UHGV virus genome: UHGV-0213309
Strand: one strand, 5' to 3'
Length of the DNA stretch: 38,072 bases
Source of the DNA: a virus
Each line of letters starts with the position of its first letter. The first letter of the stretch is position 1. Shown piece by piece: positions 1 through 26,443 of the stretch. The notes under the pieces were generated by a model. The model searched no databases. It saw only the letters and a list, made by a program, of their open reading frames with translations, and was not told where the DNA came from. The position numbers and the translations under genes were made by a program.

Positions 1-888
1 ATGGCAAGAGAGGTAGATTTAGGATCAATTATCGGACCACAGGGTGAAACAGGACCGACTGGTAAATCAGCGTATCAGGTATGGCTTGCACAGCCTGGAA
101 ACGCAGGAAAAACAGAAGCACAGTATATCGCTTCCCTAAAAGGCGAAAAGGGAGCAACCGGAGCGACAGGCCCACAGGGACCAACCGGAGCAACCGGAGC
201 GACTGGACCACAGGGAGAAAAAGGAGCAACTGGAGCGACAGGTCCACAGGGACCAACCGGGGCAAAAGGAGATAAGGGAGATCCGTTCGCAATCGCAAAA
301 ACGTTCGCCTCCGTGTCAGCAATGAATTCTGGATTCTCCTCAGATGGAGTGAAAGAAGGACAGTTCGTCATGATCGACACAGGAAATGTCAATGATGCCG
401 ATAATGCGAAACTCTATATAAAAGGAAGGACAGCATATACCTATATTACAGATCTTTCAGGTGCTACTGGAATGACAGGCCCACAGGGACAAAAAGGAGA
501 TACAGGGGCTAAGGGAGCAACCGGAGACAAGGGAGCAACTGGAACACGTGGCAGCAGATGGGACGCAGGAACAGCAATCACGGGAACAAGTACAACAGCA
601 ACAGTATTTCCAGGTTCAGGAATTACAGATACATTAGTGAATGATATGTATTTGAATACATCTACAGGGTGTACATACAGATGTACTGTAAGTGGAGCAG
701 CGTCAGCAGCTAAGTGGGTATATGCAGGAAGTCTGAAAGGAAACACGGGAGCAAAAGGAGATAAGGGAGCAACAGGAGCAACAGGCCCACAGGGAGCAAC
801 CGGAGCGACAGGAGCAACCGGTAAGGATGGACAGACTCCGACATTCAAGATCAGCAATGGACACTTGATCGCAGTATACGAAAGCTAG
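1..888 (+). CDS. Collagen-like (Gly-X-Y) repeat tail fibre protein; paralog of 901..1917 and 37352..37999
   Basis: Long [16 protein letters not shown] Gly-X-Y runs. Internal module (aa ~180-250) homologous to N-terminus of next ORF. C-terminal ...[16 protein letters not shown] motif shared with ORF 37352..37999. RBS AAGGAAGGA lies at the very end of the window (circular junction). Confidence 0.75.
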
Positions 889-900
889 GAGGAATATACA

Positions 901-1917
901 ATGGTAGCAAGACAGATTGATCTAGGACAGGTGGTTGGACCTACAGGACCAACCGGAACCAGAGGAAGCCGCTGGACACAGGGAACGGCAATCACGGGAA
1001 CAAGCACAACGGCAACAGTATTTTCCAGTTCAGGAATCACAGATGCCATTGTGAACGACAATTACCTGAACACAGCAACTGGAAATACATATAGATGTAC
1101 TGTAGGAGGAGCAGCGTCAGCCGCTAAGTGGGTATATACAGGAAATCTGAAAGGTCCACAGGGGGCAAAAGGAGCAACTGGCTCACAAGGACCAACTGGA
1201 GCAACTGGGCCAACCGGAGCAACCGGACCGAAAGGGGACACGGGACCGACAGGACCGACAGGTCCTCAGGGTCCAACAGGAAAAGTAGATGCTAATACAC
1301 AGGTAGCGTTCACAAAGGCATCAACGAGGGAGAATATAGCAAGCAATGAGAAGATGTCAACTATTCTCGGAAAGATCGCAAAGTACTTCGCAGATCTGGG
1401 AACGTCCGCATTCAGAGCAGTGGCGAATAATTTGACAACTTCAGCAGCCGGCAGTTCTGTGTTGGATGCTTATCAGGGAAAAGTACTGGATGGAAAGAAA
1501 CTGAACACTGCAAATGTGATTAATAATCTGCTTACGACAGAGGCCGGGTATGCGCTTGATGCACGACAGGGGAAGAAGATTGAGGATCAGATTACTGAAT
1601 TAAATGGCAAATCAATTATAGACATAAGTAAAAATTACTGTAAATTTGCAAATGGTTTGATTATTCAATGGGGAACAGGAACGCTTCCAAGTTCATCGTC
1701 AGGTGGGCAAGGGTATGCAACGATAACATTTCCTATACCATTTTCAGATAAATCTTACACTGCTATTGCTTGCGCAAAATATCCTGGACCAGCAACCCCA
1801 GCGTTTATGGTATCTACAGATATCGCGAGTACCTCAAAAATGTATATATATGGACGAAGCGGCAGTTTAACACAAATAACAGGTGCTGAATGTAGATGGA
1901 TTGCTATAGGTTATTAA
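901..1917 (+). CDS. Tail fibre / receptor-binding protein with collagen-like stalk and AT-rich C-terminal tip domain
   Basis: RBS GCTAGGAGGAATATACA-ATG. N-terminal module plus Gly-X-Y repeats. C-terminal ~200 aa globular region with the ALDA.QGK motif common in Gram-positive phage fibres. GC drops sharply after ~1600. Confidence 0.8.
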
Positions 1918-3060: not shown

Positions 3061-3525
3061 ATGATGGATAAGATTATCACATTGCTGTCAAGCAATTCAT
3101 TTGTAAAAATTTTGCTGATAGCGGTTGCCTTAGATACGATACTTGGCGTACTCAGGGCGATTAAAGAACACAAATTCAACAGCTGCGTAGGAATCGATGG
3201 AGCAATTCGGAAAGCGGGAATGCTCTTGTCGGTATGCTTCCTTATGGCAACGGATGTGATCATGCATATTAATGTATTAAGCATGGTACCTGAGGAGTAT
3301 GTACAGCTTCTTGGTATTGACAAGATGGGAATCTGCGAATTTTTCAGTTTGTTATTCATTTTATATGAATTGGTCAGCATTTTGAAGAATATGACATTGT
3401 GCGGTCTTCCGGTTCCGACAAAGATTAAGAGATGGATCCAGAAGTTCCTGGATGATATGACAGAGGAGCTTCCGGAAGAAGAGGTACAGGAATTGCACCA
3501 GTGCAAGAAAGGAGAAGAATCATGA
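3061..3525 (+). CDS. Holin, TcdE/UviB (phage_holin_4_1) family
   Basis: RBS GAAAGGAAGGATTGAA-ATG. Strong similarity in layout and motifs to C. difficile TcdE-type holins (KFNSxxGIDGxIRKxxM..., ...FFSxLFILYExVSILKNMxLCGLPVP...). Confidence 0.8.
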   Translation: MMDKIITLLSSNSFVKILLIAVALDTILGVLRAIKEHKFNSCVGIDGAIRKAGMLLSVCFLMATDVIMHINVLSMVPEEYVQLLGIDKMGICEFFSLLFILYELVSILKNMTLCGLPVPTKIKRWIQKFLDDMTEELPEEEVQELHQCKKGEES

Positions 3526-3698
3526 CAGAACAGACAATTAAAGAAACAATTAAGAGTTTCGCTTACGGACTTTCAGCAAAAGAAATCTCCGACAACGAAG
3601 GAACATCACTTGAAGTTATGGAGAAGTTTGCAGAGGAACACGCTGCGGAGATTGAGCAGAAAAAAGCAGAGCTGAAAGAAGGTGGCTGGTATGAGTAA
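3522..3698 (+). CDS. Small hypothetical protein between holin and lysin
   Basis: Short ORF MTEQTIKETIK... overlapping the holin 3' end and the lysin start. Coding-like codon usage. Confidence 0.35.
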   Translation: MTEQTIKETIKSFAYGLSAKEISDNEGTSLEVMEKFAEEHAAEIEQKKAELKEGGWYE

Positions 3699-4761
3699 GT
3701 TAATCATTGATGTTAGCTATCATAATGGAGTGATAAATTGGGAAAAAGTAAAAGCATCCGGTTGTGCCGGAGCTATTCTTAGATGCGGATATGGAGATGA
3801 TATCACATCACAGGATGATAAGCAGTGGATTCGCAACCTTGCTGAGTGCGAAAGACTTGGTATTCCGGTAGGAGTGTATCTGTACAGCTATGCGACTTGT
3901 GACAGACAGGCTCAGAGCGAACTTGACCACATCTTGAGATTGATTAAAGGTCATACATTCCAGTTGCCGATTTTCCTTGACGTGGAAGAACCTGGCACAC
4001 AGAACTATGCTCCTAGATGCTGTGAAATCGTCTGCGAAGGACTAAAAGCAAATGGATATACTCCGGGAATCTACGCTTCACTGAGTTGGTTCAACAACCA
4101 TCTTGGCAGTGTATGTGGCAAGTACATTGAATGGATGGCAAGGTATAAGAATCTCCCGGAAGATACATACAAAGGTCAGTATGCTATCTGGCAGTATTCT
4201 TCTGATGGACAAGTAGATGGAGTCAGTGGAAGAGTAGATGTCAACTATTGCTACATGGAGTTCGGTGGCAGTGCTACACCAGTAACACCGTCAGCACCAT
4301 CTAAGCCGGTAGAAAAGAAAGACTTAGGACAGGTCGATATTACATATCAGGCTTTCACAGACAGATGGTGGCCACCAGTGGTGAATAAAATCGACTGGGC
4401 TGGAAAAAGAGATAATGTTTCGATTAAGTGGCTTGCCATCAAGGTAAGCAAAGGAAGTATCCGCTGTAGAGTATACACAAGAAAGAATGGCTGGTTGCCA
4501 TATCTCACATTCGGCAACAGCTATAACCTGAATGACAAGGTAAATGGAATCCTCGGAGATGGTTCAGAGATTCTTGCCGTAGAACTGTACTACATCACAC
4601 CGGAAGGATATAAGTACAAGATGGTTCACTACAGAGTTTCTGTGAAAGATAACTCGAACTTCTACAGTGAGCAGATCGATACGCTGAAAGCCAATGGTGC
4701 AGACGGCTATGCAGGAGACAAATACAGATTCATTGACAAGTTCCAGGCTTGGATTGAGTAA
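3691..4761 (+). CDS. Endolysin, GH25 muramidase domain plus C-terminal cell-wall-binding region
   Basis: RBS GAAGGTGG then ATG. N-terminal IIDVSYHNGVINW...GxxxxILRCGYG...YLYSY motifs typical of Glyco_hydro_25 lysozymes. Followed by a hairpin terminator. Confidence 0.85.
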   Translation: MSKLIIDVSYHNGVINWEKVKASGCAGAILRCGYGDDITSQDDKQWIRNLAECERLGIPVGVYLYSYATCDRQAQSELDHILRLIKGHTFQLPIFLDVEEPGTQNYAPRCCEIVCEGLKANGYTPGIYASLSWFNNHLGSVCGKYIEWMARYKNLPEDTYKGQYAIWQYSSDGQVDGVSGRVDVNYCYMEFGGSATPVTPSAPSKPVEKKDLGQVDITYQAFTDRWWPPVVNKIDWAGKRDNVSIKWLAIKVSKGSIRCRVYTRKNGWLPYLTFGNSYNLNDKVNGILGDGSEILAVELYYITPEGYKYKMVHYRVSVKDNSNFYSEQIDTLKANGADGYAGDKYRFIDKFQAWIE

Positions 4762-4842: not shown

Positions 4843-4896
4843 AAATACACCGAAAACAGTGTTGACAATACACCGAAAATGGTGTATTGTATAGTT
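4843..4896 (+). promoter_or_regulatory. Sigma70-like promoter (TTGACA-17-TATTGT) flanked by two perfect 12-nt direct repeats ATACACCGAAAA
   Basis: TTGACA at 4862-4867. Direct repeats at 4845-4856 and 4868-4879. ACACC..GGTGT inverted element over the -10 region. Lies upstream of the low-GC cassette. Confidence 0.6.
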
Positions 4897-4931
4897 GTAA
4901 CAAAGAAGAGCACATGAAAAGGAGAAAGACC

Positions 4932-5315
4932 ATGACAGTAGAGGAAATCAGAAATTTAATCAGTGAAGCAGAATATGATTACATTGGAATCAGAGCAGAT
5001 AGCAGAGATTATCAGATTGGTGAAGTGATGGATAACTCACATCAGCTCTTCCAGGATCCTCAGTATACAGACTTTGAATGTACAGAGTTGTTATATCCAT
5101 ACATTTCAGAAGGTCCTTATACCGGATTCTATGATGGCGGAGAACTTGATGGCACATGTGCACTTGAAGTATCTGAGAGCAATATCGAAGAAATGATTGA
5201 AAGAGTAACGTCATATGGAAACAAATATTATTTGATTGGTGGAAACTCAATGGAATACGGAAATGACGATGACGAGATTATTATTAATGATGCAGAAGTG
5301 ATTGCAAGAATATAG
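4932..5315 (+). CDS. Hypothetical protein (first gene of low-GC accessory cassette)
   Basis: RBS AAAAGGAGAAAGACC-ATG. Acidic protein MTVEEIRNLISEAEYDYIG... with no recognisable family. Confidence 0.5.
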   Translation: MTVEEIRNLISEAEYDYIGIRADSRDYQIGEVMDNSHQLFQDPQYTDFECTELLYPYISEGPYTGFYDGGELDGTCALEVSESNIEEMIERVTSYGNKYYLIGGNSMEYGNDDDEIIINDAEVIARI

Positions 5316-5327
5316 AGGAGAAAAATA

Positions 5328-6158
5328 ATGAATGGAAATATATGGAAAGAAGTTCTGAAGCAACATGAAATGCTAGGTATTGAAAATATAATTCCTGTAT
5401 CTCATATAAGAATAAGACCAGATATAGGAATATTATTAGACGATAATGGCAATTTTGTAGGTGCAACTATAATCAAAAACGAAAGATGCTCAATCCCATG
5501 TACTATAGACTCAGAAAGTAGAACTAATGGAATATCGCCACATCCGATACACGATAATATGAGTTATATTTGCGGAGAATATCCAAATTATGAAAAACGA
5601 CACGATACATATATGAAACAATTGCAAAGTTATACAGAAAATGTAGATGATAATCTTGCAAAGAGTGTATATAGATATTTGAAAAAGAAAACAATCCGGC
5701 TTGATATCAAAAATTTGACAAAGCAAATAGAAAACATATCAGAAGAAAAATTGATGGTCGTATTCGCAACGTTAAGTCATCGAGACACGATAAGCAAAAA
5801 ATGGACAGAATACTATACATCTACGCTTGATAGAAATGGTATATGTGGAATAACAGGAGAAAAGGATCATATCCCGGATAAATATCCAAAAGGAATAAGA
5901 AATCCGTCTGATCAAGCAAAATTATTTATCGCCAATCCAAAAAAAATGGATTCAATGCCTACGAATGTGCCTGGTTATATAGCATCTCAGAAAATTATAC
6001 ATACGCTGCAATTTATGATATACGAGGGGAATTCTTGGGCATACCAAATACTAAAAGACAATGTAGATACAATCCCGGAAACATGGAAGGAATGGGTAGA
6101 AGAATATCAAGCTAAAAATGGAATACAAAAAAGGGAGGATGGGGAGAAAAATGAATAG
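5328..6158 (+). CDS. Hypothetical protein, very AT-rich (second gene of accessory cassette)
   Basis: RBS GAGGAGAAAAATA-ATG. 276 aa. GC visibly far below the phage average. Overlaps the next gene by 8 nt (translational coupling). Confidence 0.6.
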   Translation: MNGNIWKEVLKQHEMLGIENIIPVSHIRIRPDIGILLDDNGNFVGATIIKNERCSIPCTIDSESRTNGISPHPIHDNMSYICGEYPNYEKRHDTYMKQLQSYTENVDDNLAKSVYRYLKKKTIRLDIKNLTKQIENISEEKLMVVFATLSHRDTISKKWTEYYTSTLDRNGICGITGEKDHIPDKYPKGIRNPSDQAKLFIANPKKMDSMPTNVPGYIASQKIIHTLQFMIYEGNSWAYQILKDNVDTIPETWKEWVEEYQAKNGIQKREDGEKNE

Positions 6159-6786
6159 AACAGAAAAGGCCTGTATTAAATGTGGCAAGCTCTTTCACGG
6201 AGGTTCTGATAAATTTTATTGCGATGATTGTGCGAAAGCTTTAAAAAGTAATGTTATGCGTACAAGGACATGTAAAATGTGCGGAGTTGAATTCCTTGGT
6301 GGTCCGCGTGCATCCTATTGTCCAGAATGTCGCAAAATTCGGCAAAAAGAAGCAAGCGCAAGAGCAAGGAAAAGAGGTGGAGCTGTTCGGCCAATTGGAA
6401 GCATGGATAAATGCGAATGGTGCGGATCTGAATATATTGTTAATTCCGGAAGGCAAAAATATTGCTCGGATGAGTGTCAAAGAGAGGCGGTGCTAGAGTG
6501 GCAACGGAAACACAAAGAAGGATATAACAAGATATCTGGGCAAGATATTAAAAAAGCGCAACGCCGAAAAGAGAAAAAGAAAATCTGTGTATATTGCGGA
6601 CGTGTATTCTCTAGTTCTACACCAACTAATTTGTGCTCTGAATATTGTCGAAAGAAAAATAGGCAGATCAAAGAATATCAAGCAGAAATAAAACGCGGAA
6701 AGAATGTAAATATAGGCAGGTTACTGAACGAGCAGAAAGAATACCAATCAAAAGTTGAAACTAATGAAATAGAAAAAACAATATAA
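6151..6786 (+). CDS. Protein with four tandem CxxCG-x(10-12)-YCxxC zinc-ribbon modules separated by basic linkers
   Basis: Strong RBS AAGGGAGGATGGGGAG. Repeats CIKCGKLF..YCDDC, CKMCGVEF..YCPEC, CEWCGSEY..YCSDEC and CVYCGRVF..LCSEYC. Arg/Lys-rich spacers. Confidence 0.65.
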   Translation: MNRTEKACIKCGKLFHGGSDKFYCDDCAKALKSNVMRTRTCKMCGVEFLGGPRASYCPECRKIRQKEASARARKRGGAVRPIGSMDKCEWCGSEYIVNSGRQKYCSDECQREAVLEWQRKHKEGYNKISGQDIKKAQRRKEKKKICVYCGRVFSSSTPTNLCSEYCRKKNRQIKEYQAEIKRGKNVNIGRLLNEQKEYQSKVETNEIEKTI

Positions 6787-6851
6787 AATTCAAATCTGCT
6801 ACCAATTAAAAAACAGATCAGAAAGAATAGAAAGTTATTTGGGTGATTAAA

Positions 6852-7058
6852 ATGGGAAAAATGACATATAAAATTGATGTGCTAGACATGCTAAAAAAAG
6901 AAGGGTACACGCAAACCACATTAAGAAAAGAAAAGCTAATCGGTCAAGATGCAATACAGAAAATGAGAAAAGGAGAAATGATAGGGATTAACGTATTGAC
7001 AACGGTATGCAAATTACTGGATATGCAACCAGGAGATATTATAGAGTATCGGAAGTAG
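6852..7058 (+). CDS. Small HTH (XRE/Cro-C1-like) DNA-binding protein
   Basis: GGGTGA RBS then ATG. ~68 aa with a helix-turn-helix signature TQTTLRKEKLIGQDAIQKMRKGE. Last gene before the candidate attP. Confidence 0.55.
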   Translation: MGKMTYKIDVLDMLKKEGYTQTTLRKEKLIGQDAIQKMRKGEMIGINVLTTVCKLLDMQPGDIIEYRK

Positions 7059-7235: not shown

Positions 7236-8786
7236 TTATTTGCGCGGGATTCTGGGCTTTATGGTCAATTCAAAGTTAGGCTCATTCAGATGACCGCGCT
7301 TATTTTTCGTTAATTTCTTGTATTCTATAGATTCTATGAGTAATTTCAACAACCGGTTGCGTTCCGGAATAGATAAATCCCAATAACAGGAAAGCAGATC
7401 TTCACAAGCCGGCAGGAACTGTTCTATATTGGCTTCTCTTTGGCGTTCCTTGTCAAGTTCGAGTTTCAGCTGGGCAACGTTTGATTCAGCTTCAGAAATT
7501 CGGTTTTGTAAACTGTCAGATCGCTCAAGAAAGACTTCTGTCGAGTAGACACCTTGTTCAAGCAGATCATACATGGTTCCCTTTTGCCGTAGAAGTTGAT
7601 CGAGTGTCTGTTGAGCTGATTCCAAAAGAACTTCTTTTTCCGGAATAAGACTCTTACTTGGCATCTGACCACTCAGACGATATCCTTCAACCCAGTCAGA
7701 AAGCGCGTTATAAACTTCTCGCTCAACAAGATCCAAAGGGCTGCCAATGGTAGGACAATCATATGTACTGCACAACATCAGATCATAAGGCACACGACTG
7801 GCGGTTCCGGAAGGCGGCCGGCGAATCATTTTCTTTTTGCACTCACTACAGACAATGATTCCGGCAAGTGGATTTTTGATAATGTTAGAACCGGCAGGTT
7901 TTGGGGATCCACAGCCAAGATAACTCTGAGCTTCTGCAAATACATCGTGATCGATCAAGCGCGGATGCCGGCCGGAAACAATGGTATAGTCACTGGTTCT
8001 CGGACGCGTGGTTGTGAGAACACCGTTTTCAACTGTCCTGACCACTTTTCGTTCGCCGATCTTAACGCATTGATCATACACAACATTAGAGAGAATTCCA
8101 CGGACGGTACTCTCACTCCAAAGTTTGGAATTACGCGGCTTTGTACCGTAACTGTTTAAAGTGCGAGTGATCGACCGGATACCGACACGTTCCGGACCGG
8201 TAAACATAGAAAAGATAAGCCGCACAACAGGAGCCTCGTTTTCATCAAAAGCAAGAGTCCATCCTTTCTCTTTTTCAAGTTTCACTCTCCGGAAACCGTA
8301 TGGCGCGGAGTTGTATGGCCACTTTCCCTCAGAGATAGCGGCATAACGTCCATTCTGCATCCTGCGCTTGATCGTCTTATATTCACGACGACTCATGAAT
8401 AATCCAAACTCAAAATACTCTTCATCGAATTCATTGGCAGGATCATAGGTTTTGGAAGGCGTGATGATTAGTGTGTTGGAATACTGAAATGCTCTCTGTA
8501 CAACTCCCTGATCTATTGTATCACCACGAGCAAGACGTTCTACTTCCATAACGAGCACACCGTCCCACAGGTTTTGTTCTACTTCGTGAAGTAACTGCTG
8601 CATAACAGGACGCGCAGCTATGGTTTCTCCGGACACAACTTCTCGATAAATATTGCTGATAATAAGGTTATTTTTCTTAGCAAGAGAAAGAAGTGCACGT
8701 TCGTGTCTGGCAAGAGTTTCCCCTTCACCATGCTGCTCGGCTTCAAGATCCTTTCTTGATTTCCTCAAATAAATACAATACGACAT
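7236..8786 (-). CDS. Large serine recombinase (integrase)
   Basis: RBS GGAGGTGATATC-ATG on minus strand. N-terminal resolvase-type catalytic domain (YLRKSRKD...). Recombinase domain, Cys-rich zinc ribbon and C-terminal coiled coil. ~516 aa. Confidence 0.9.
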   Translation of the reverse strand: MSYCIYLRKSRKDLEAEQHGEGETLARHERALLSLAKKNNLIISNIYREVVSGETIAARPVMQQLLHEVEQNLWDGVLVMEVERLARGDTIDQGVVQRAFQYSNTLIITPSKTYDPANEFDEEYFEFGLFMSRREYKTIKRRMQNGRYAAISEGKWPYNSAPYGFRRVKLEKEKGWTLAFDENEAPVVRLIFSMFTGPERVGIRSITRTLNSYGTKPRNSKLWSESTVRGILSNVVYDQCVKIGERKVVRTVENGVLTTTRPRTSDYTIVSGRHPRLIDHDVFAEAQSYLGCGSPKPAGSNIIKNPLAGIIVCSECKKKMIRRPPSGTASRVPYDLMLCSTYDCPTIGSPLDLVEREVYNALSDWVEGYRLSGQMPSKSLIPEKEVLLESAQQTLDQLLRQKGTMYDLLEQGVYSTEVFLERSDSLQNRISEAESNVAQLKLELDKERQREANIEQFLPACEDLLSCYWDLSIPERNRLLKLLIESIEYKKLTKNKRGHLNEPNFELTIKPRIPRK

Positions 8787-8939: not shown

Positions 8940-8985
8940 TTCCCCAGTTGACCGTTCCTGTTGGCGCAGGAGCGGTTTTTATTTA
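8940..8985 (+). other. Two adjacent hairpins sharing loop TTGGCG (AAGCACA..TGTGCTT and CCGTTCCTG..CAGGAGCGG plus T-run)
   Basis: Lies in the non-coding gap upstream of the recombinase start. Second hairpin is terminator-like on the plus strand, yet no plus-strand gene is upstream. Confidence 0.35.
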
Positions 8986-9600
8986 AGATATAAAACCATC
9001 ATCTTTTATCTGGAATATCTTTTTGTGTAGTGTTATCGTTGTCTTGAAACTTCTGGCCATCAAGAAGAACAGAGCTCCGAATATAATAAAGAAAGCACCG
9101 ATTCCGACAGACGTTGAGAGTCCGGCAAGTCCGAAAGCCAGTAAGACAACTGACATGATCATGGCGATTACACGGCACAATGAGAATGTAGAAATTTTTG
9201 TGCGTTTTCCATTTGCTTTTATGATTGAATCTCTGTCCTGATCAAGTACACATCCAGTTTGAACAAGCGAAATGTATTTTTTCTTCTCACTTGATGTCAG
9301 CACTTTCTCAAGCTTAGATGGAATCCGTACCTCAGGGATTTCTGCGGCAGATCCACTGAAAGAACTGTTGGAAGATGAACGCAATCCATTTCCACCGATC
9401 CCACGATATACATCACCGACTCCAAAGGTTGTCTTGTTATAGACTTTATTGTATGCTGCCTTCTTCGGATCCTTTATCCATCCGACACCTTTCTGTCCGT
9501 ATCCAGGAGACACGGATTTCTTAACAGCTCTTTTTACTTTTCCAGTTGTCTGAGCCTTAACACTTTTCTTCAAGCTCGGCGTTCTCATTCCTACTTTCAT
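8983..9600 (-). CDS. Lysine-rich protein with two C-terminal transmembrane helices
   Basis: RBS AAGGAAAAGGTGAT then ATG (minus). Basic N-terminal half (KKSVKAQTTGKVKRAVKK...). TM segments VIAMIMSVVLLAFGLAGL and IGAFFIIFGALFFLMA. Overlaps the 3' end of the channel gene. Confidence 0.5.
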   Translation of the reverse strand: MKVGMRTPSLKKSVKAQTTGKVKRAVKKSVSPGYGQKGVGWIKDPKKAAYNKVYNKTTFGVGDVYRGIGGNGLRSSSNSSFSGSAAEIPEVRIPSKLEKVLTSSEKKKYISLVQTGCVLDQDRDSIIKANGKRTKISTFSLCRVIAMIMSVVLLAFGLAGLSTSVGIGAFFIIFGALFFLMARSFKTTITLHKKIFQIKDDGFIS

Positions 9601-10362
9601 CGTTATCACCTTTTCCTTCATGTAGGCACTGCAGAGTTTTGCAGATTGCCTGAATATCATCGTCTGACAGTTCATCAAAGTTGTTCAGCTGGCTCTGTAT
9701 CGAGCTGATCAGAATATCTTTTGCGGTAGATTTTTCTTTGTCAGTTGTCTTTTGAAAGAAAACTGCTGTGATTGTGCTAGTCAGAGAACCGATTAGACCG
9801 ATTCCAACAAGCATCAGAACAGTTGCTATGATTCTTCCCGGAATTGTTGATGGTGAGATATCTCCATATCCAACAGTTGTCGCTGTAACAAAACTCCACC
9901 AAAAGCCATCTGAAAAGCTCATTCCTTCCGCATAATGGATGGATATTCCACCGATTGCAATACAGATCAGCGTTGCTCCGACCATATACTTAAATCCATT
10001 CAAGTCAAAGAAGAACTTTATATGCTTGTAGAGCCTTGCAAATCGTGCGGACGCTTTTGCTAGCTTCAAGAGTTTTAGCATCTTGAATACTTTGAATACC
10101 CTGAAAACTTTGAACAAAGAGTTGAACGGAATAATTGCAATCAGATCCAGTATGTTATTCCGAAAAAACTCTTTTTTATTTTTAGCAATCAGCAATCGTA
10201 ACGCATAGTCTACAATAAATATTGTGTTGATCGCAAAGTCAATGTCGCGCTGAATTGTAGAACATCCAGTTGTCATGTCATAGATTGCAAAGTAGACAGC
10301 TACGATTGCAAGTACGCTGAAAAGGAGATCATACAGAACAGAAAGTCGTTCTTTGTGCTTCA
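9557..10362 (-). CDS. Voltage-gated K+ channel (6TM; S4 with K/R every third residue; selectivity filter TVGYGD)
   Basis: RBS AGGAGAA 9 nt before ATG (MKHKER...). S4 FKVFRVFKVFKMLKLLKLAKASARFARL. Pore helix/filter WWSFVTATTVGYGDISP. S6 GRIIATVLMLVGIGLIG. Cytoplasmic C-tail follows. Confidence 0.8.
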
Positions 10363-10520
10363 TAAAACAAATTCTCCTGATTTCATTTAATATAATAAGC
10401 ACCCCATCTCTATGCAAGAACAAATGTTCGATAAAACCATTGATTTCTAAATACAAATGTCGTATGATGAAATCAAGGAATTTCGAAGAGTGTTCTTGCT
10501 GGGAACGGAGGGACTACATA

Positions 10521-10643
10521 ATGAGCAATGTATCTAAACAACTTATCATAGGAATGGTGAAGAAAATTGACGATTCAGATGAAAAATTTCTTCGCCAGCT
10601 CTACACCATATTAAAAAGACATTTAGAAAGAAGGAAGCATTAG
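10521..10643 (+). CDS. Possible small ORF (40 aa) convergent with repressor
   Basis: GGAGGG RBS then ATG. Ends in a hairpin shared with the repressor 3' end. Weak call. Confidence 0.2.
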   Translation: MSNVSKQLIIGMVKKIDDSDEKFLRQLYTILKRHLERRKH

Positions 10644-10657
10644 CTTCCTTTTTTTAT
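10632..10657. terminator. Bidirectional terminator hairpin AAGGAAGC-ATTA-GCTTCCTT followed by TTTTT
   Basis: Perfect 8-bp stem at the convergent 3' ends. T-run on plus strand. Confidence 0.6.
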
Positions 10658-12345: not shown

Positions 12346-12627
12346 GTGCAACAGAGAGAATTTGCTTTATACAAAAGAAGGTTACTGAGTCTGATCCCAG
12401 GAAAATTGCAGGACATTCCGAACAGGGAAGTGAAGATCAAGTTTTTCCGTTCCAGCCTGATTGAGCAGATTGAAAAGGAAAAGGACTGGCAGTTCACCGG
12501 GGAACAGGCAGCAGAGCTGATCCGGATGGCAATTTATCCAGATCTGAGATCGGAGGAAGAACGGATGCAGTACGAAGATTTCCTCATGAATGGATTGGAC
12601 AGAGTTATGTCAGAGAATGAGAAATGA
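12346..12627 (+). CDS. Hypothetical protein
   Basis: RBS AAAGGAGG then GTG (or ATG at 12328). Confidence 0.4.
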   Translation: MQQREFALYKRRLLSLIPGKLQDIPNREVKIKFFRSSLIEQIEKEKDWQFTGEQAAELIRMAIYPDLRSEEERMQYEDFLMNGLDRVMSENEK

Positions 12628-12661
12628 GCCAGAAAAGAGGAAGAAGGGAGAAAGACCACAT

Positions 12662-12979
12662 ATGGATTATCAGGTGGAAGAAAACACAGGAACTGGGCTG
12701 CTGCTCTGGGACATTGGAAGAAGCGGACGAGTACGCCAGGAAGAAGAACAAAGGAGATTACATCATATTAGAATGAGCCTTTGGAGAACAAGATTTATCA
12801 CAGGAGTTGGAATGCTTGCAGGAATCTTCTACGCTTCCGGAGCAGCAATCACATATTCTGTATCAGTTGTTGCACCGGAGTCAACGCTGGAGCGCGTCCT
12901 GATCGGACTAGCTGTATCAGTAAGCTTCTATGCGCTGAATTCAATCGCAAAGGCACTGGAAAAACAGATAAAAAAATAA
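12662..12979 (+). CDS. Small membrane protein (2 TM)
   Basis: RBS GAAGGGAGAAAG then ATG. Hydrophobic segments ITGVGMLAGIFYASGAAI and LIGLAVSVSFYAL. Confidence 0.45.
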   Translation: MDYQVEENTGTGLLLWDIGRSGRVRQEEEQRRLHHIRMSLWRTRFITGVGMLAGIFYASGAAITYSVSVVAPESTLERVLIGLAVSVSFYALNSIAKALEKQIKK

Positions 12980-13130
12980 CACTTCCGGAGGTAACGGAAG
13001 TGTTGAATGCAAGACTTTTGTCTCGCAGATATTAAAGACAATATTATCTTAACATCTGTGGGGCAGGAAGTCAAGAAAAACGGGGATTCTGCCCCATTTT
13101 AATACTCGATTAAGATATTAAAGATAGAGG
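12978..13130. promoter_or_regulatory. Structured region upstream of rep: 10-bp perfect hairpin, imperfect 16-bp palindrome, terminator-like GGGGCAG/CTGCCCC hairpin with T-run, and direct repeat AGATATTAAAGA x2. Candidate origin/regulatory region
   Basis: AACACTTCCG-gaggtaa-CGGAAGTGTT at 12978-13004. AAGACAATATTATCTT at 13035-13050. AGATATTAAAGA at 13027-13038 and 13113-13124. Confidence 0.4.
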
Positions 13131-13133
13131 TAC

Positions 13134-13898
13134 ATGATGGCTACAAAGAGAGTAACACACACCTTCCGGAAGGGAGACATCCTGGAGGTGAAGGAATACC
13201 ATGATGGCAGGTATGGAGCAAGAGGACTGCCAAGAGAAAAGAAGAGAAAGCCGACACCGGAGCAGATGGCTGTTGTGAATGCTATGAATAAAGCAGAGAC
13301 AGCCAGACACAGATTGTTGGAGTACTTTGGAAAGGGAGACTACTTCCTGACATTGACGTACAAGGTAGAAGAGAGACCTCCGGACATGGCACAGGCGAAG
13401 AAAGATTTCACGAAGCTGATCAGTAAGCTAAGAGCAAGATACAAGAAAGAACAGATTGAGCTGCGCTGGATCAGGAACATTGAGAAAGGAACGAAGGGAG
13501 CATGGCATGTGCATCTCGTTCTGACCGGGGGCAGGGATACGATCCGCTGGGTGGAAGAATGTTGGCCGCATGGTGGAATCTATGCAGAACAACTGGAGAA
13601 AAGCAAATACTACGAAGAGGATTTCTCACAGCTCGCATCCTACATCACCAAAAACGAGAAGGTGGGAGAAAAGAGGGAGGATGGAAAGAGGGACAAGCCA
13701 AGACTTAGCGAATCCAGTTACAGCACTTCGCGGAACATGCCATTGAAGCCGCCAAAGAAAAAGAAACTGGCAAGATGGCCAAAAGAAATCAAACAGAAGA
13801 ATGGCTATTACATTGCCAAGAGCTATGAAGGAATCAATCCGGCTACAGGATTCAAATACCGGAGATATACATTGATCAGATTGAACAGGAGGATTTGA
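13134..13898 (+). CDS. HUH-type rolling-circle replication initiator (Rep)
   Basis: Motif I-like FLTLTY, HUH motif WHVHLVLTGG, downstream Tyr-containing SYITKNEK. Basic C-terminus. Confidence 0.65.
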   Translation: MMATKRVTHTFRKGDILEVKEYHDGRYGARGLPREKKRKPTPEQMAVVNAMNKAETARHRLLEYFGKGDYFLTLTYKVEERPPDMAQAKKDFTKLISKLRARYKKEQIELRWIRNIEKGTKGAWHVHLVLTGGRDTIRWVEECWPHGGIYAEQLEKSKYYEEDFSQLASYITKNEKVGEKREDGKRDKPRLSESSYSTSRNMPLKPPKKKKLARWPKEIKQKNGYYIAKSYEGINPATGFKYRRYTLIRLNRRI

Positions 13899-23289: not shown

Positions 23290-23610
23290 GTGAGCAAATC
23301 GACACAAAAAGACGTAAAAATGTCGCTGATTAGACAGCTGGAACTACGTGGAATGAGTGCAGAATTCTACATGGATCTAGTGAATGATTATATATATTAC
23401 TGGTCATTGAAAAAGAAACTAATAGCAGATATTAAGAGCAAAGGGTTGAGATACGAGACCGTGAACGGGAATGGAATGACGGTGGAAAAAGCGAACGAAA
23501 GCGTTGTCAATTTGCAGAAAACTACGGCCACTATGCTGAAGATCCTGGCAGATCTGAAGTTGAAAGAGCCGGTACCAGAGCCGGAGAATCCTACAGATGG
23601 TTATCTGTAA
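23290..23610 (+). CDS. Terminase small subunit (P27-family-like)
   Basis: Position immediately before terL with an overlapping stop/start. ~100 aa. Start uncertain (GTG 23290 or ATG 23320). Confidence 0.6.
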   Translation: MSKSTQKDVKMSLIRQLELRGMSAEFYMDLVNDYIYYWSLKKKLIADIKSKGLRYETVNGNGMTVEKANESVVNLQKTTATMLKILADLKLKEPVPEPENPTDGYL

Positions 23611-25270
23611 AGAGATTGATTATTATCTCAAATATGCCGAAGAACATCCGAAATGGATAAATAAAAAGAGAAAATTGCTGATAGAAAACATCGTGAAGCC
23701 GACATTGAAGCGAAACGATGTTTTTTTTGATGAAAAAACATATAGGAACTGTCTACAGTACTGCAAAACAAATTACTACGAACTATTTCCATTCCAAAAG
23801 TTCATTTATGCCTTTGCATTTATGTATGTGGATGACATTCCAGTATTTTCAAAGTTCTTCGTCAAGGAAGGACGTGGAAATGGTAAAGATGGATTCATCG
23901 TGCCGCTGGTAAATTTCTTTCAGACTCCGCTCTACGGAGTGAAAAATTACCATGTTGAAATTGTGGCGAACTCAGAGAGCCAGGTTAAGGACACATTCAA
24001 GGTAGCTTATGACATGCTACATGATAATCCAAAATTCAAGGGAAAGTTTTCGGTCACAAAGGAACTTATCACGAACCTGGCAACAGGATCGGAGATGAAA
24101 TACAACACTTCGAACGCAAAGACCAAGGATGGTAAGCGAACAGGATGTCTTGTCCTGAACGAAATCCATGCCTACGAGAACTATGACCAGATCAATGTAT
24201 TTGAATCCTCTTTTGGTAAGGTCAAGCATTCGAGAGAGTTTATTATCACAACAGATGGCTATGTCAGAGACGGTCCGTTGGATGAAATTTCGGCAATGTG
24301 TGCAGAAATCTTGGAGACGGGAGAGAATTTGCTAGGGTACTTCCCTTTTATTTGCGAGATTGATGACATGAAGGAAGTTGATGATCCGGAGGCATGGCAT
24401 AAGGCGAATCCGTCGATGGAATATATGCCGATTCTTGCGAATCAGATCATGCATGATTATCTGGAAATGAAGAAGATTCCGTCAAAGCGTGCTGAATTTA
24501 TTACAAAACGAATGGACAGATCGGCACGAAAGGAAGAGGAGACGGTCACAACATGGCAAAATGTCCTGAGAGCATGTTATGAAGGTGAGACAATGGAAGA
24601 ATTGGAACGCAAGATTCCGCGGATAACATTGGACACGCGAGGACAGGCAGCAGTGATTGGCATTGACTATGCGGATGTGCGAGACTTCGCATCGGCTGGC
24701 ATTCTGACCAAGACAGATGATGGAGAGTGGATATGGAGACAACACACATGGATCTGTGCAGACTCTCCGTTCATTGATTCAATCAAATTTCCGTTGCGCA
24801 ATGTCGGACAAGAAGAGTTTGAGGATTTTGAAGTTGTCCAAGGTCCGGTGATTGATGTAAATATAATAGCCGACTGGTGCATGAAACAGTTCCAAGACTA
24901 TGATGTGAAGAAAATAGCAATGGATACTTATCGCTACACGTTATTCAAGACGGCGTTTGAAGAAAGAGGTCTCACGATTGAGGATAAGAAGAACCCACAT
25001 GGCATTGTTCGGCTGGTTAGAAAGATAACGTCAGCAACAGGAATTATTGCTCCGTTTATTCAGTCTATGTTCTCACAGGGGATGATCAACTTCGGACCAT
25101 CAGCAATCATGCGGTGGTACACGAATAACACAAGCGTGAGCGAGGATAAGTTTGGAAATAAAAATTTCGGCAAGATAGAACCGAAATTGAGAAAAAATGA
25201 TGGATTTATGGCCTTCGATGTGGCTATGTTCTGCAAGGATGAGCTGGAAATTCAGATAATCTATGTTTAA
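23597..25270 (+). CDS. Terminase large subunit
   Basis: 557 aa. N-terminal ATPase region (FVKEGRGNGKDGF, LVLNEIHAYEN Walker-like) and C-terminal nuclease region. Canonical position. Confidence 0.9.
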   Translation: MVICKEIDYYLKYAEEHPKWINKKRKLLIENIVKPTLKRNDVFFDEKTYRNCLQYCKTNYYELFPFQKFIYAFAFMYVDDIPVFSKFFVKEGRGNGKDGFIVPLVNFFQTPLYGVKNYHVEIVANSESQVKDTFKVAYDMLHDNPKFKGKFSVTKELITNLATGSEMKYNTSNAKTKDGKRTGCLVLNEIHAYENYDQINVFESSFGKVKHSREFIITTDGYVRDGPLDEISAMCAEILETGENLLGYFPFICEIDDMKEVDDPEAWHKANPSMEYMPILANQIMHDYLEMKKIPSKRAEFITKRMDRSARKEEETVTTWQNVLRACYEGETMEELERKIPRITLDTRGQAAVIGIDYADVRDFASAGILTKTDDGEWIWRQHTWICADSPFIDSIKFPLRNVGQEEFEDFEVVQGPVIDVNIIADWCMKQFQDYDVKKIAMDTYRYTLFKTAFEERGLTIEDKKNPHGIVRLVRKITSATGIIAPFIQSMFSQGMINFGPSAIMRWYTNNTSVSEDKFGNKNFGKIEPKLRKNDGFMAFDVAMFCKDELEIQIIYV

Positions 25271-25285: not shown

Positions 25286-26443
25286 ATGTTTGATTTTTTA
25301 TTCCAAGACAGGAACAAAGAAATACAGTCTTTGGCAGAAATCATTGCAGTTGACATGGAAAAGCTGAATCTTTCAAAGCTTGCCATCGAGAAAGCAATTA
25401 TGATGATCGCCAAGGCAATAGCGAAGTCTGACATACTGATCCAGACGGAGAGCAAAGAAAAAAACAAGAAAGAATACAGGCTAAACGTACAGCCCAATGA
25501 CCACGAATGTGGGACAGTGTTCTGGACGGAAGTGGTTAAGCAGCTGCTAACAGAACAAGAAGCTCTGATTATTCCGCTAAATGGTAAATATTACAGAGCG
25601 ACATCATGGTCACACACGAATGAAGTGATGCTGAAGCGAGTTTACAAAGATGTGATGTTAAGCTGCGGAGGTGAAAATCTTACAATTTTCAGCACATTTC
25701 AATCTGATGAAGTGATTCATCTAAGATATGACAATGCAAGGATTCGATTGTACTTACAGAATGTAGTAGGGCAATTTGATAAGACGATGGATTCCATTAA
25801 TGCAATGATGCAGCTGTCCAGCCAACCAAGATTCAAATTGAAGCTTGGAACGAATGCATTATCATTCAGAGAAAAGCAAGCAGATGGTACAGACAAGGTA
25901 ATGACAAAAGACCAGTATGTTTTAAAAATTAAAAAACTACTGACGTCAGATGCCCTTGAAGTTTTAACAGAACAAGAGAATGCATCCGTGGAACAGCTAC
26001 AAATAAATACAGCAGTGAAAGCTGAAGAACTGGCAAAGATGGCTTTGCAGATCAATAACGAGGTGGCAAATGCTTTCGATATTCCAGAGGCTGTGTTTAA
26101 TGGCAATATCACAGAAAAATCAGACGCAACAAATGAATTTATCACATATGCTGTCAGTCCGATAGCAGAAGTGATAAATGATACTTTGACAGCTTATGTT
26201 GTCGGAGAGGATGATTACTGCGGCAAAAACGAGAAAGTCATGGTATGGCTTGCGCGCTTTAAACATGTTGATGTTGTGGATAGCGCAGTAAATCTTGATA
26301 AACTCAGAGGAATTGGATTCCATCTCGATGAAATCAGAGAGATGGTCGGATATCCGTTACTCAATACAGAATTCAGTACAGAGCGAGCTCTGACAAAGAA
26401 TTACGGAGGGGAGGGAAACAGTAATGCGGCACAAGAAACCTGA
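25286..26443 (+). CDS. Portal protein
   Basis: 385 aa directly after terL. RBS TAGGAGAAGAAGAAA-ATG. HK97-like portal size and position. Confidence 0.8.
   Translation: MFDFLFQDRNKEIQSLAEIIAVDMEKLNLSKLAIEKAIMMIAKAIAKSDILIQTESKEKNKKEYRLNVQPNDHECGTVFWTEVVKQLLTEQEALIIPLNGKYYRATSWSHTNEVMLKRVYKDVMLSCGGENLTIFSTFQSDEVIHLRYDNARIRLYLQNVVGQFDKTMDSINAMMQLSSQPRFKLKLGTNALSFREKQADGTDKVMTKDQYVLKIKKLLTSDALEVLTEQENASVEQLQINTAVKAEELAKMALQINNEVANAFDIPEAVFNGNITEKSDATNEFITYAVSPIAEVINDTLTAYVVGEDDYCGKNEKVMVWLARFKHVDVVDSAVNLDKLRGIGFHLDEIREMVGYPLLNTEFSTERALTKNYGGEGNSNAAQET

Follow-up and report, generated by a model that had tools for sequence, protein, structure and literature searches.

The genome UHGV-0213309 raises the question of why a small temperate phage should carry, within its lysogeny module, what appears to be a complete voltage-gated potassium (Kv) channel. 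The window, as the whole analysed stretch of 38,072 nucleotides is called here, is the complete, circularly permuted genome, about 38 kb long, of a temperate siphophage from gut Clostridia, and the channel gene is located between the genes of a serine integrase and an HTH_3 repressor, on a strand common to all three. Profile searches, alignments and fold comparisons show that the locus encodes a predicted prokaryotic Kv-type K+ channel of the KvAP/KvLm kind, with a voltage sensor formed by S1-S4, a pore with the TVGYGD filter and a conserved pair of cytoplasmic C-terminal helices. A first-pass annotation, made from the sequence alone, had placed such a channel on the lysogeny strand between the serine integrase and a cI-like repressor, and the Pfam and PHROG assignments agree with this position; its structural and genomic reading is supported, with corrections to the start, the promoter, the supposed rarity of the channel and the status of a partner gene. 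As to function, a role in superinfection exclusion or abortive infection (Abi) is tentatively favoured and weighed below against other readings. The coordinates of the features are collected in Table 1.

The product of 268 amino acids (aa) is encoded by the minus-strand open reading frame (ORF) 9557..10363, with the stop codon at 9557..9559 and the ATG at 10363..10361. The longest version of this ORF reaches a TTG at 10456, and ATG 10363 is the best start; the earlier description of a complete six-transmembrane Kv channel at 9557..10362 therefore stood except for a start that was off by one. The Pfam searches proposed with that description, for which a lack of K+ channel family matches was named as the contrary outcome, gave highly significant matches to Ion_trans (PF00520; E=6.8e-17, 61.9 bits at a cutoff of 25, residues 13-207 spanning S1-S6) and to Ion_trans_2 (PF07885; E=2.1e-17, 63.2 bits at a cutoff of 22.5). 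The profile of PHROG 7872 was matched with E=2.9e-63 by residues 3-219 on profile positions 7-231 of 254. In a phmmer search against PDB sequences residues 6-219 were aligned to KvAP (6uwm, E=1e-17); three KvAP entries were the best full-length matches (E=1e-17 to 5e-15), followed by Kv1.2/2.1, Shaker, Kv2, Kv3 and Kv4, and the best match of the pore was KvLm (Lmo2059, 4h33; E=2.6e-18). On these sequence comparisons the membership in the channel family is far beyond chance. The NCBIfam model of the hyperpolarisation-activated channel MVP reached 39 bits only, at a cutoff of 300. With KvAP of Aeropyrum pernix and KvLm of Listeria monocytogenes the protein shares six transmembrane helices, the lack of a T1 domain, the TVGYGD filter, the S4 repeat, the acidic S2 and S3 counter-charges and a C-terminus that is short and helical, whereas it differs from both in being encoded on a phage-borne, swappable cassette and in an S4 with almost only lysine in place of arginine.

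The voltage sensor claimed in the first-pass annotation, with lysine or arginine at every third position, was found as FKVFRVFKVFKMLKLLKLAK. The basic residues K85, R88, K91, K94, K97, K100 and K103 stand at every third position and are followed by R107 and R110, which gives nine basic residues in S4, seven of them with a period of three, and almost all are lysine in this clade. In the KvAP alignment K91, K94, K97 and K100 fall on the gating arginines R117, R120, R123 and R126, while D52 and D73 are aligned with D72 and E93. The counter-charge and charge-transfer set of S2 (D42, F49, D52 and R56) and the set of S3 (N70 and D73) vary little or not at all among phage and chromosomal members. In an alignment of 55 family members the selectivity filter TVGYGD, whose canonical form had been recognised from the outset, is invariant, and the C-terminal motif Q..L..F..L.D.DI..IC.TL..LH is invariant or nearly so; differences in S4 length are three-residue indels only, so that the helical period of the basic residues is preserved.

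A structure prediction, suggested earlier as a check, was performed with AlphaFold2. The single-sequence model had a predicted local distance difference test score (pLDDT) of 43 and was discarded; instead, the model generated from the 55-sequence alignment was used (pLDDT 70). With this model a Kv fold was recovered by Foldseek, the top PDB matches being Kv2.1, Kv4.x, Shaker and Kv1.2 with a probability of 1.0 and E-values down to 1.8e-7; the TM-score to Kv structures was only about 0.4, as expected for the monomer of a domain-swapped tetramer. A search of BFVD with the same model matched short pore-only viral channels alone, which cover just the pore. We infer that the channel forms tetramers, is expressed in lysogens and opens on a change of voltage.

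The comparison with sibling phages defined the channel gene as part of a mobile unit. In blastn alignments of the window with the siblings L171 and L172 the identity was 97-99% up to position 10416 on the repressor side and from position 8980 on the integrase side, while the 1435-bp interval of the window is replaced by 1397 bp with a DUF4236 gene. The phages L170-L174, with a 100%-identical repressor and the same integrase, encode a DUF4236 protein of 405 aa where the window has the channel. Because these near-identical flanks enclose other cargo, the channel and the overlapping partner gene downstream constitute a discrete swappable cassette, and the earlier designation of the channel as a moron in the lysogeny module is borne out by a clean swap. 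The breakpoint at the repressor side is the first base of the candidate -35 hexamer, which indicates that the cassette brings its own upstream region. In the relative L177/L115 the DUF4236 gene is present together with an 82%-identical channel, without the partner. DUF4236-headed proteins of 340-455 aa were observed in near-identical phages as alternative or added cargo of the slot (L171 5732..6949, L115 3609..4976, L193 and L194) and had no PADLOC match.

The first-pass annotation had regarded a voltage-sensor channel in a temperate phage as unusual, a view that did not survive the protein search, in which 1454 clusters were found at E<=1e-10, many of them on contigs of 36-40 kb; the family is a large one, with a PHROG of its own and a member in phage PLE2 that was listed in 2018. 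Recurrence at the junction of integrase and repressor, the comparison suggested at the time, was observed in many related and unrelated prophages. Among 63 IMG/VR loci, 46 of the 50 callable six-transmembrane matches have the order repressor-channel-integrase, with tyrosine or serine integrases. The recurring order reads repressor(+), 0 to 2 small genes, channel(+), 0 to 3 genes, integrase(+), and was found on metagenomic contigs with tyrosine integrases, in integrated Roseburia faecis prophages whose serine integrase adjoins host genes, in siblings of the window, some of them integrated into cotJC, and in the Lactobacillus phages PLE2 and JNU_P5 (channel identity 36-38%). In PLE2-type phages the channel gene is the next gene after cI and ImmA and shares their strand, an order that would imply co-expression in lysogens.

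Outside phages the family has a different distribution. Among the 80 best loci of GTDB species representatives an integrase is next door in a minority, and most homologues of Lactobacillaceae, Bacillaceae and Paenibacillus look chromosomal. In a neighbour-joining tree the clade at least 57% identical to the window channel is prophage-borne in 45 of 48 cases, whereas phage and chromosomal members interleave at 40-50% identity, and a Lactobacillaceae clade of PLE2-like phages stands beside a large chromosomal clade. This pattern argues for repeated exchange between phages and chromosomes, probably followed by long residence in phages. The ratio of non-synonymous to synonymous substitution rates (dN/dS) of the channel is 0.06-0.09 (about 0.08) at dS 0.28-1.3, values that point to strong purifying selection. 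Chromosomal homologues were also observed outside the Firmicutes, in Akkermansia (Verrucomicrobiota; L043 and L045, 37-39% identity) and Synergistaceae, which suggests a probable cross-phylum transfer of the channel in the gut.

The signals for expression were read from the sequence around the channel. The ribosome binding site (RBS) attributed to the channel in the first-pass annotation is present as AGGAGA. The promoter proposed there, TTGCAT-17-TATATT, also exists; its strength is doubtful, as it matches the consensus at 8 of 12 positions and was not listed by a consensus promoter scan. At the repressor stop a hairpin terminator was detected on the plus strand, and on the minus strand its stem is shorter and is followed by a T-rich stretch; the hairpin is predicted to insulate the channel partly from repressor transcription. 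The minus-strand reading of the hairpin beyond the partner gene is without a T tail. A search for inverted repeats upstream of the channel gave weak AT-rich palindromes only, so that no operator can be claimed there. The 40-aa ORF between channel and repressor is 95-100% conserved in 19 loci and is called as a gene in relatives. It was also observed that the gap between repressor and channel always holds a small gene on the opposite strand, elsewhere a 65-88-aa Xre-type HTH gene (L004 5685..5882, L012 6688..6885 and the L119 region). Because the same small HTH gene precedes non-channel cargo in L180-L188 and L199, the small divergent gene may serve specifically to regulate the cargo that the slot holds.

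The further content of the slot was determined for 58 channel loci, in which 43 non-redundant proteins of at least 100 aa encoded between repressor and integrase were classified with Pfam and PADLOC. The families recognised were ImmA/IrrE proteases, which are repressor partners (5), AbiD/Abi_2 (4), PD-Lambda-1 (T5orf172/MUG113; 2), HSDR_N nuclease-like proteins (2), DUF4236 (2) and, with one member each, an Ltp exclusion lipoprotein that shares the slot with a channel in L137, SLATT/DUF4231, a ThsB-like TIR protein, PDC-S22 and MazF. About a third of the 38 non-ImmA co-residents are recognisable defence, exclusion or toxin genes. In channel-less phages with related repressors the slot holds predicted lipoproteins, an AAA_15/AAA_21 ATPase, an exonuclease-BRCT protein and membrane proteins. 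This mixture of cargo identifies the repressor-integrase slot as a defence and exclusion hotspot.

Because of the cassette on the lysogeny strand, its recurrent position, the defence-rich slot and the precedents for ion-channel effectors, we tentatively favour, at somewhat short of even confidence, the reading that the channel is a voltage-triggered effector of superinfection exclusion or abortive infection. Phage DNA injection causes a transient depolarisation of the membrane. According to this reading the lysogen would make the channel from its own weak promoter or by read-through of the repressor transcript, and the channel would assemble as a tetramer in the cytoplasmic membrane, where it would be sensor and effector at once: a change of membrane voltage, the trigger being the transient depolarisation caused by the DNA injection of an incoming phage, would move S4 and open the K+-selective pore. 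The resulting K+ flux would clamp the membrane potential near the K+ equilibrium potential and drain the cell of K+, and this would block DNA entry or macromolecular synthesis of the superinfecting phage. The logic would be that of lambda RexB, Hailong HalA and the exclusion by Kcv, except that a voltage sensor would replace the separate sensor protein. A more far-reaching version, which we consider doubtful, would make this a one-protein anti-phage system in which S4 itself detects infection, and would have temperate phages of Firmicutes repeatedly domesticate host Kv channels. If true, such a one-protein voltage-sensing system would be the first clear physiological role for any voltage-gated K+ channel of bacteria; textbooks present KvAP and KvLm as models of channel structure, but essentially no biological role in prokaryotes is known for them. 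The occurrence of a large and well conserved clade almost solely in the repressor-integrase slot of temperate phages makes voltage-triggered exclusion or Abi a concrete and testable hypothesis, for which the PLE2 prophage of L. casei BL23 would be a tractable test system.

Several points weigh against the defence reading. A K+ channel activated by depolarisation is intrinsically repolarising, so that harm to the invader would depend on gating polarity and external K+, and guilt by association in a moron slot fits any lysogen-fitness gene as well. The hairpin terminator between repressor and channel, together with the weakly matching promoter of the channel, means that channel expression in this lysogen is only predicted. 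Many chromosomal homologues in Clostridia, Lactobacillaceae and Bacillaceae stand in no phage or defence context, which points to ordinary K+ physiology as the ancestral role. Finally, PADLOC 2.0, which lacks a Hailong model (PMC13586616), gave no match for the channel, the partner, the 40-aa ORF or a 151-aa neighbour.

The precedents differ from the window channel in instructive ways. Chlorovirus Kcv is likewise a virus-encoded, K+-selective tetrameric pore with a GYGD filter, and it both depolarises the host and keeps competing viruses from hyperinfecting it (PMC6163359, PMC9405923). Kcv-type channels, however, are pore-only proteins of 80-150 aa in an internal virion membrane, whereas the window channel has 268 aa and an S1-S4 sensor and lies on the lysogeny strand of a tailed phage; a Kcv-type minimal channel was accordingly ruled out as an identification by length, sensor and the tailed-phage genes (terminase, portal and tail fibres). 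Lambda RexAB and the RexAB-like gp30/gp31 of mycobacteriophage Sbash are encoded by repressor-adjacent prophage genes, and a proposed channel (RexB, gp31) collapses the membrane potential and aborts infection (PMC6426596). The window channel adjoins the repressor on the same strand, with the hairpin terminator and the convergent 40-aa ORF between them; RexB and gp31 have four transmembrane helices, show no kinship with K+ channels and depend on a cytoplasmic sensor (RexA, DUF4747), and no RexAB-type gene was matched by PADLOC or Pfam in the channel, the partner or their neighbours. Sbash gp31 was also considered as a K+ channel and rejected, as the paper describes a RexB-like four-transmembrane protein and does not mention potassium (PMC6426596). 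Hailong HalA is a homotetrameric ion-channel effector that depolarises the membrane in anti-phage defence, and some members are described as carrying a K+ channel domain of the IRK type (PMC13434031, PMC13586616). In HalA the gating signal is oligodeoxyadenylate from the nucleotidyltransferase HalB, whereas the putative gate of the window channel is its S1-S4 sensor; a HalB-like nucleotidyltransferase was not found in the cassette or its flanks.

The exclusion proteins Sie2009 and Ltp of phages of lactic acid bacteria occupy the integrase-repressor niche, are expressed from the prophage and act at the membrane. As small membrane proteins or lipoproteins they stop DNA injection directly, and they have no known relationship in sequence or fold to the channel.

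The closest phage relatives described so far are PLE2 gp27 (YP_009282368.1) and an 'ion transporter' of JNU_P5, which belong to PHROG 7872 and have 36-38% identity to the channel; their genes, on the lysogeny strand, likewise stand after the repressor and ahead of the integrase. In PLE2-type channels S4 is rich in arginine, the C-terminus is SHOCT-like and the gene belongs to a cI-ImmA operon, whereas the window channel has its own promoter region, the 40-aa ORF and the partner. The PLE2 protein was listed as a phage K+ channel with four predicted transmembrane helices by Greiner et al. 2018, who mention neither its voltage sensor nor its lysogeny position (PMC6163359). The family is therefore already catalogued; the recurrent location in a defence hotspot and the cassette swap are new, and the known viral K+ channels, pore-only proteins encoded by algal viruses and jumbo phages, are joined by channels with a full voltage sensor from small temperate phages. 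Literature searches found no paper testing the function of phage Kv channels, and the BL23/PLE2 paper and its supplements held no usable data on the channel.

Among the alternatives, lysogenic conversion survives best, as a serious if rather unlikely explanation: an extra K+ conductance would raise the fitness of the lysogen in the K+-rich, osmotically and pH-variable gut, by electrophoretic K+ uptake, by osmotic or pH homeostasis or by YugO-type electrical signalling. A contribution of bacterial K+ channels to K+ uptake and to colonisation is known, for example from HpKchA of H. pylori. Chromosomal members with a housekeeping look are widespread in the same host groups and interleave with phage members at 40-50% identity, suggesting repeated exchange, and the strong purifying selection on pore, filter and sensor is what a normally working channel would be expected to show; a survey of gut phages also lists homologues of yugO-type K+ channels (KEGG K10716), treated there as sporulation-related (PMC10294663). 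Yet many hosts already hold chromosomal homologues, which would make the phage copy redundant, and the cassette turns over rapidly among near-identical phages. The repressor-integrase slot of Firmicutes siphophages is typically one for exclusion or Abi genes, in keeping with the share of defence-type co-residents found here. Homeostatic control is not apparent either, as an Rfam scan of the window revealed no RNA family, including no K+ or c-di-AMP riboswitch, and no other such control was found upstream of the channel. If K+ physiology were nevertheless the function, the channel would be an abundant trait of lysogenic conversion, so far overlooked, among the Lachnospiraceae of the human gut.

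The partner gene bears on a second alternative, a Rex-like two-component module, which is a sub-case of the defence reading and in our view improbable: the basic N-terminal domain of the partner would sense a cue of the invader and gate or localise the channel. The first-pass annotation had paired the two genes, and the 44-nt overlap of the partner with the channel 3' end, the basic N-terminus (16 of the first 61 residues are K or R) and the two-helix C-terminus, seen in hydropathy analysis as a hydrophobic hairpin near residues 135-186, were all found; a general partnership was not, since the full partner occurs in 25 of 165 channel-bearing or related loci (window included). Its carriers are near-identical relatives and one subclade with 67% channel identity, 58% partner identity and an identical 44-nt overlap, and this conserved overlap and gene order between subclades speak for a functional pair, as does the purifying selection on the partner (dN/dS 0.1-0.3). 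An independent case is the Lactobacillus phage contig L148, unrelated to the window, in which a protein with the N-domain, a transmembrane segment and a SHOCT-like end directly follows the channel. Against such a pair, most channel loci are without the partner, including relatives with 77-82% channel identity, and the channel tail (residues 250-268), which is predicted to be disordered, is present only where the partner overlaps and looks like an insertion.

The partner N-domain is likewise not confined to channel loci. Residues 1-65 match PHROGs 10934, 29766, 3374 and 4721, all of unknown function; no Pfam or NCBIfam match was obtained for the domain, and a profile search of the PDB gave none, with a best E-value of 0.17. 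Homologues of the domain are fused to transmembrane hairpins or to TM2, HIRAN, exonuclease or Lon-C domains, and in another phage one member is encoded by a lytic-strand gene that has primase and terminase as its neighbours, so that the domain is best described as a promiscuous phage module. An assignment of the domain to DUF4236 was considered and rejected (hhalign probability 1%). In a comparison with the relative L108, dS was 0.28 for the channel and 0.036 for the overlapping partner, a mismatch that indicates a recombination breakpoint inside the two-gene cassette and independent recombination histories of the two genes. In our reading the partner is lineage-specific and is an accessory or separate moron rather than a subunit that the channel requires; a modulating effect on the channel is the less likely alternative. 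As a separate observation, channels of Lactobacillus phages (L001, the C-terminus of the PLE2 channel, and L150) end in a SHOCT-like motif (..GAITQSEYDAKK..), and the N-domain membrane protein downstream of the L148 channel (L148 5866..6471) ends in the same kind of motif, which hints at a possible SHOCT-mediated association.

Less probable still is a role in the cycle of the phage itself, in which the channel would time holin triggering, aid DNA entry or exit or report the host energy state to the lysis-lysogeny decision. Its own promoter region, the terminator-like hairpin and the divergent small ORF or HTH gene could mean that the channel is regulated separately, the channel of the relative L010 lies beside a holin-endolysin pair, and infection by T4 and T5 has been linked to changes in K+ conductance (PMC6163359). 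In essentially every locus, however, the channel is encoded on the lysogeny strand, opposite to the early and late lytic genes, and in PLE2-type phages within a cI-ImmA operon; moreover, it is dispensable, as sibling phages lack it, and tailed phages have no virion membrane to carry it. An artefact, either a host channel joined by mis-assembly or captured or a decaying passenger gene, has nothing further in its favour than the existence of chromosomal homologues and was rejected as extremely unlikely, since dozens of independent assemblies show the same arrangement, as do IMG/VR prophages from isolates and phages in GenBank, the cassette is swapped among siblings, the ORF is intact with all functional motifs invariant, and dN/dS is low.

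Table 1. Features of the window UHGV-0213309 and their positions.
Feature	Position	Strand	Evidence or remark
Tail fibres	1-1917		
Holin	3061-3525		
GH25 endolysin	3682-4761		
Four-gene moron block	4887-7058	plus	
Large serine integrase, 516 aa from ATG 8786; ORF extends to GTG 8870	7236..8786	minus	Resolvase, Recombinase, Zn_ribbon_recom
GC-rich hairpin directly after partner stop codon, in conserved right flank	8950..8977		Terminator-like, 12 pairs
Swappable moron cassette: candidate promoter, RBS, channel, partner	8981..10415	minus	blastn vs siblings L171, L172
Partner gene, 205 aa: basic N-terminal domain, linker, C-terminal transmembrane hairpin	8983..9600	minus	ORF, RBS AAGGTGA, hydropathy
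Six-transmembrane Kv-type K+ channel gene, 268 aa	9557..10363	minus	Pfam, PHROG 7872, KvAP/KvLm alignments, Foldseek, dN/dS
K+ selectivity filter TVGYGD, residues 163-168	9860..9877	minus	Read from sequence
S4 voltage-sensor helix, FKVFRVFKVFKMLKLLKLAK, residues 84-103	10055..10114	minus	KvAP alignment, family alignment
RBS AGGAGA, 9 nt upstream of channel ATG	10373..10378	minus	Read from sequence
Candidate sigma-A promoter TTGCAT-17-TATATT	10388..10416	minus	Present; consensus matches 8/12
40-aa ORF, RBS GGAGGG, divergent from channel, convergent with repressor	10521..10643	plus	Conserved
Hairpin terminator at repressor stop and end of 40-aa ORF	10626..10655		Terminator scan, plus strand
cI-like HTH_3 repressor, 128 aa	10640..11026	minus	Pfam HTH_3 8.5e-13, PHROG transcriptional repressor families
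Rolling-circle Rep	13134-13898 onward		
Terminase	23597-25270		
Portal	25286-26443		

The integrase of the window matched PHROG 95 with 1.5e-89, and the 516-aa call is also seen in relatives. In the siblings L017, L018 and L019 (about 12365..13200) the prophage is integrated in the spore-coat gene cotJC, where the serine integrase is directly followed by a 65-aa Mn_catalase (CotJC) fragment, CotJB and CotJA, an integration that resembles sporulation-gene-interrupting elements such as skin and SPbeta. In L010 (4573..8359) a 78%-identical channel is accompanied by a holin, an endolysin, a 231-aa protein and a Uma2-family protein in what looks like a prophage remnant; housekeeping genes (tRNA synthetases, NUDIX and D-Tyr deacylase) border the remnant on either side, and the channel may be a domesticated copy. 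The pore-only K+ channels of about 150 aa on jumbo-phage-sized IMG/VR contigs of 90-465 kb (L155-L164) form a group separate from the six-transmembrane channels.

Between the endolysin and the integrase of the window, the plus-strand block at 4887..7058 encodes a 142-aa protein of no assigned family, a 276-aa Cas8c-like protein, a Cys-rich zinc-ribbon protein and a 71-aa HTH_26 (Aca-like) protein. The 276-aa protein matches the N-terminal half only of Cas8c/Csd1 (PF09709, E=2.4e-22; PADLOC Cas8c, E=1e-32, model positions 16-237 of 537). The four-gene unit is absent from the sibling L016 and from 50,697 GenBank phages and is conserved, with 92-100% aa identity, in 9 IMG/VR contigs; it may represent a type I-C Cascade decoy or an anti-CRISPR locus.

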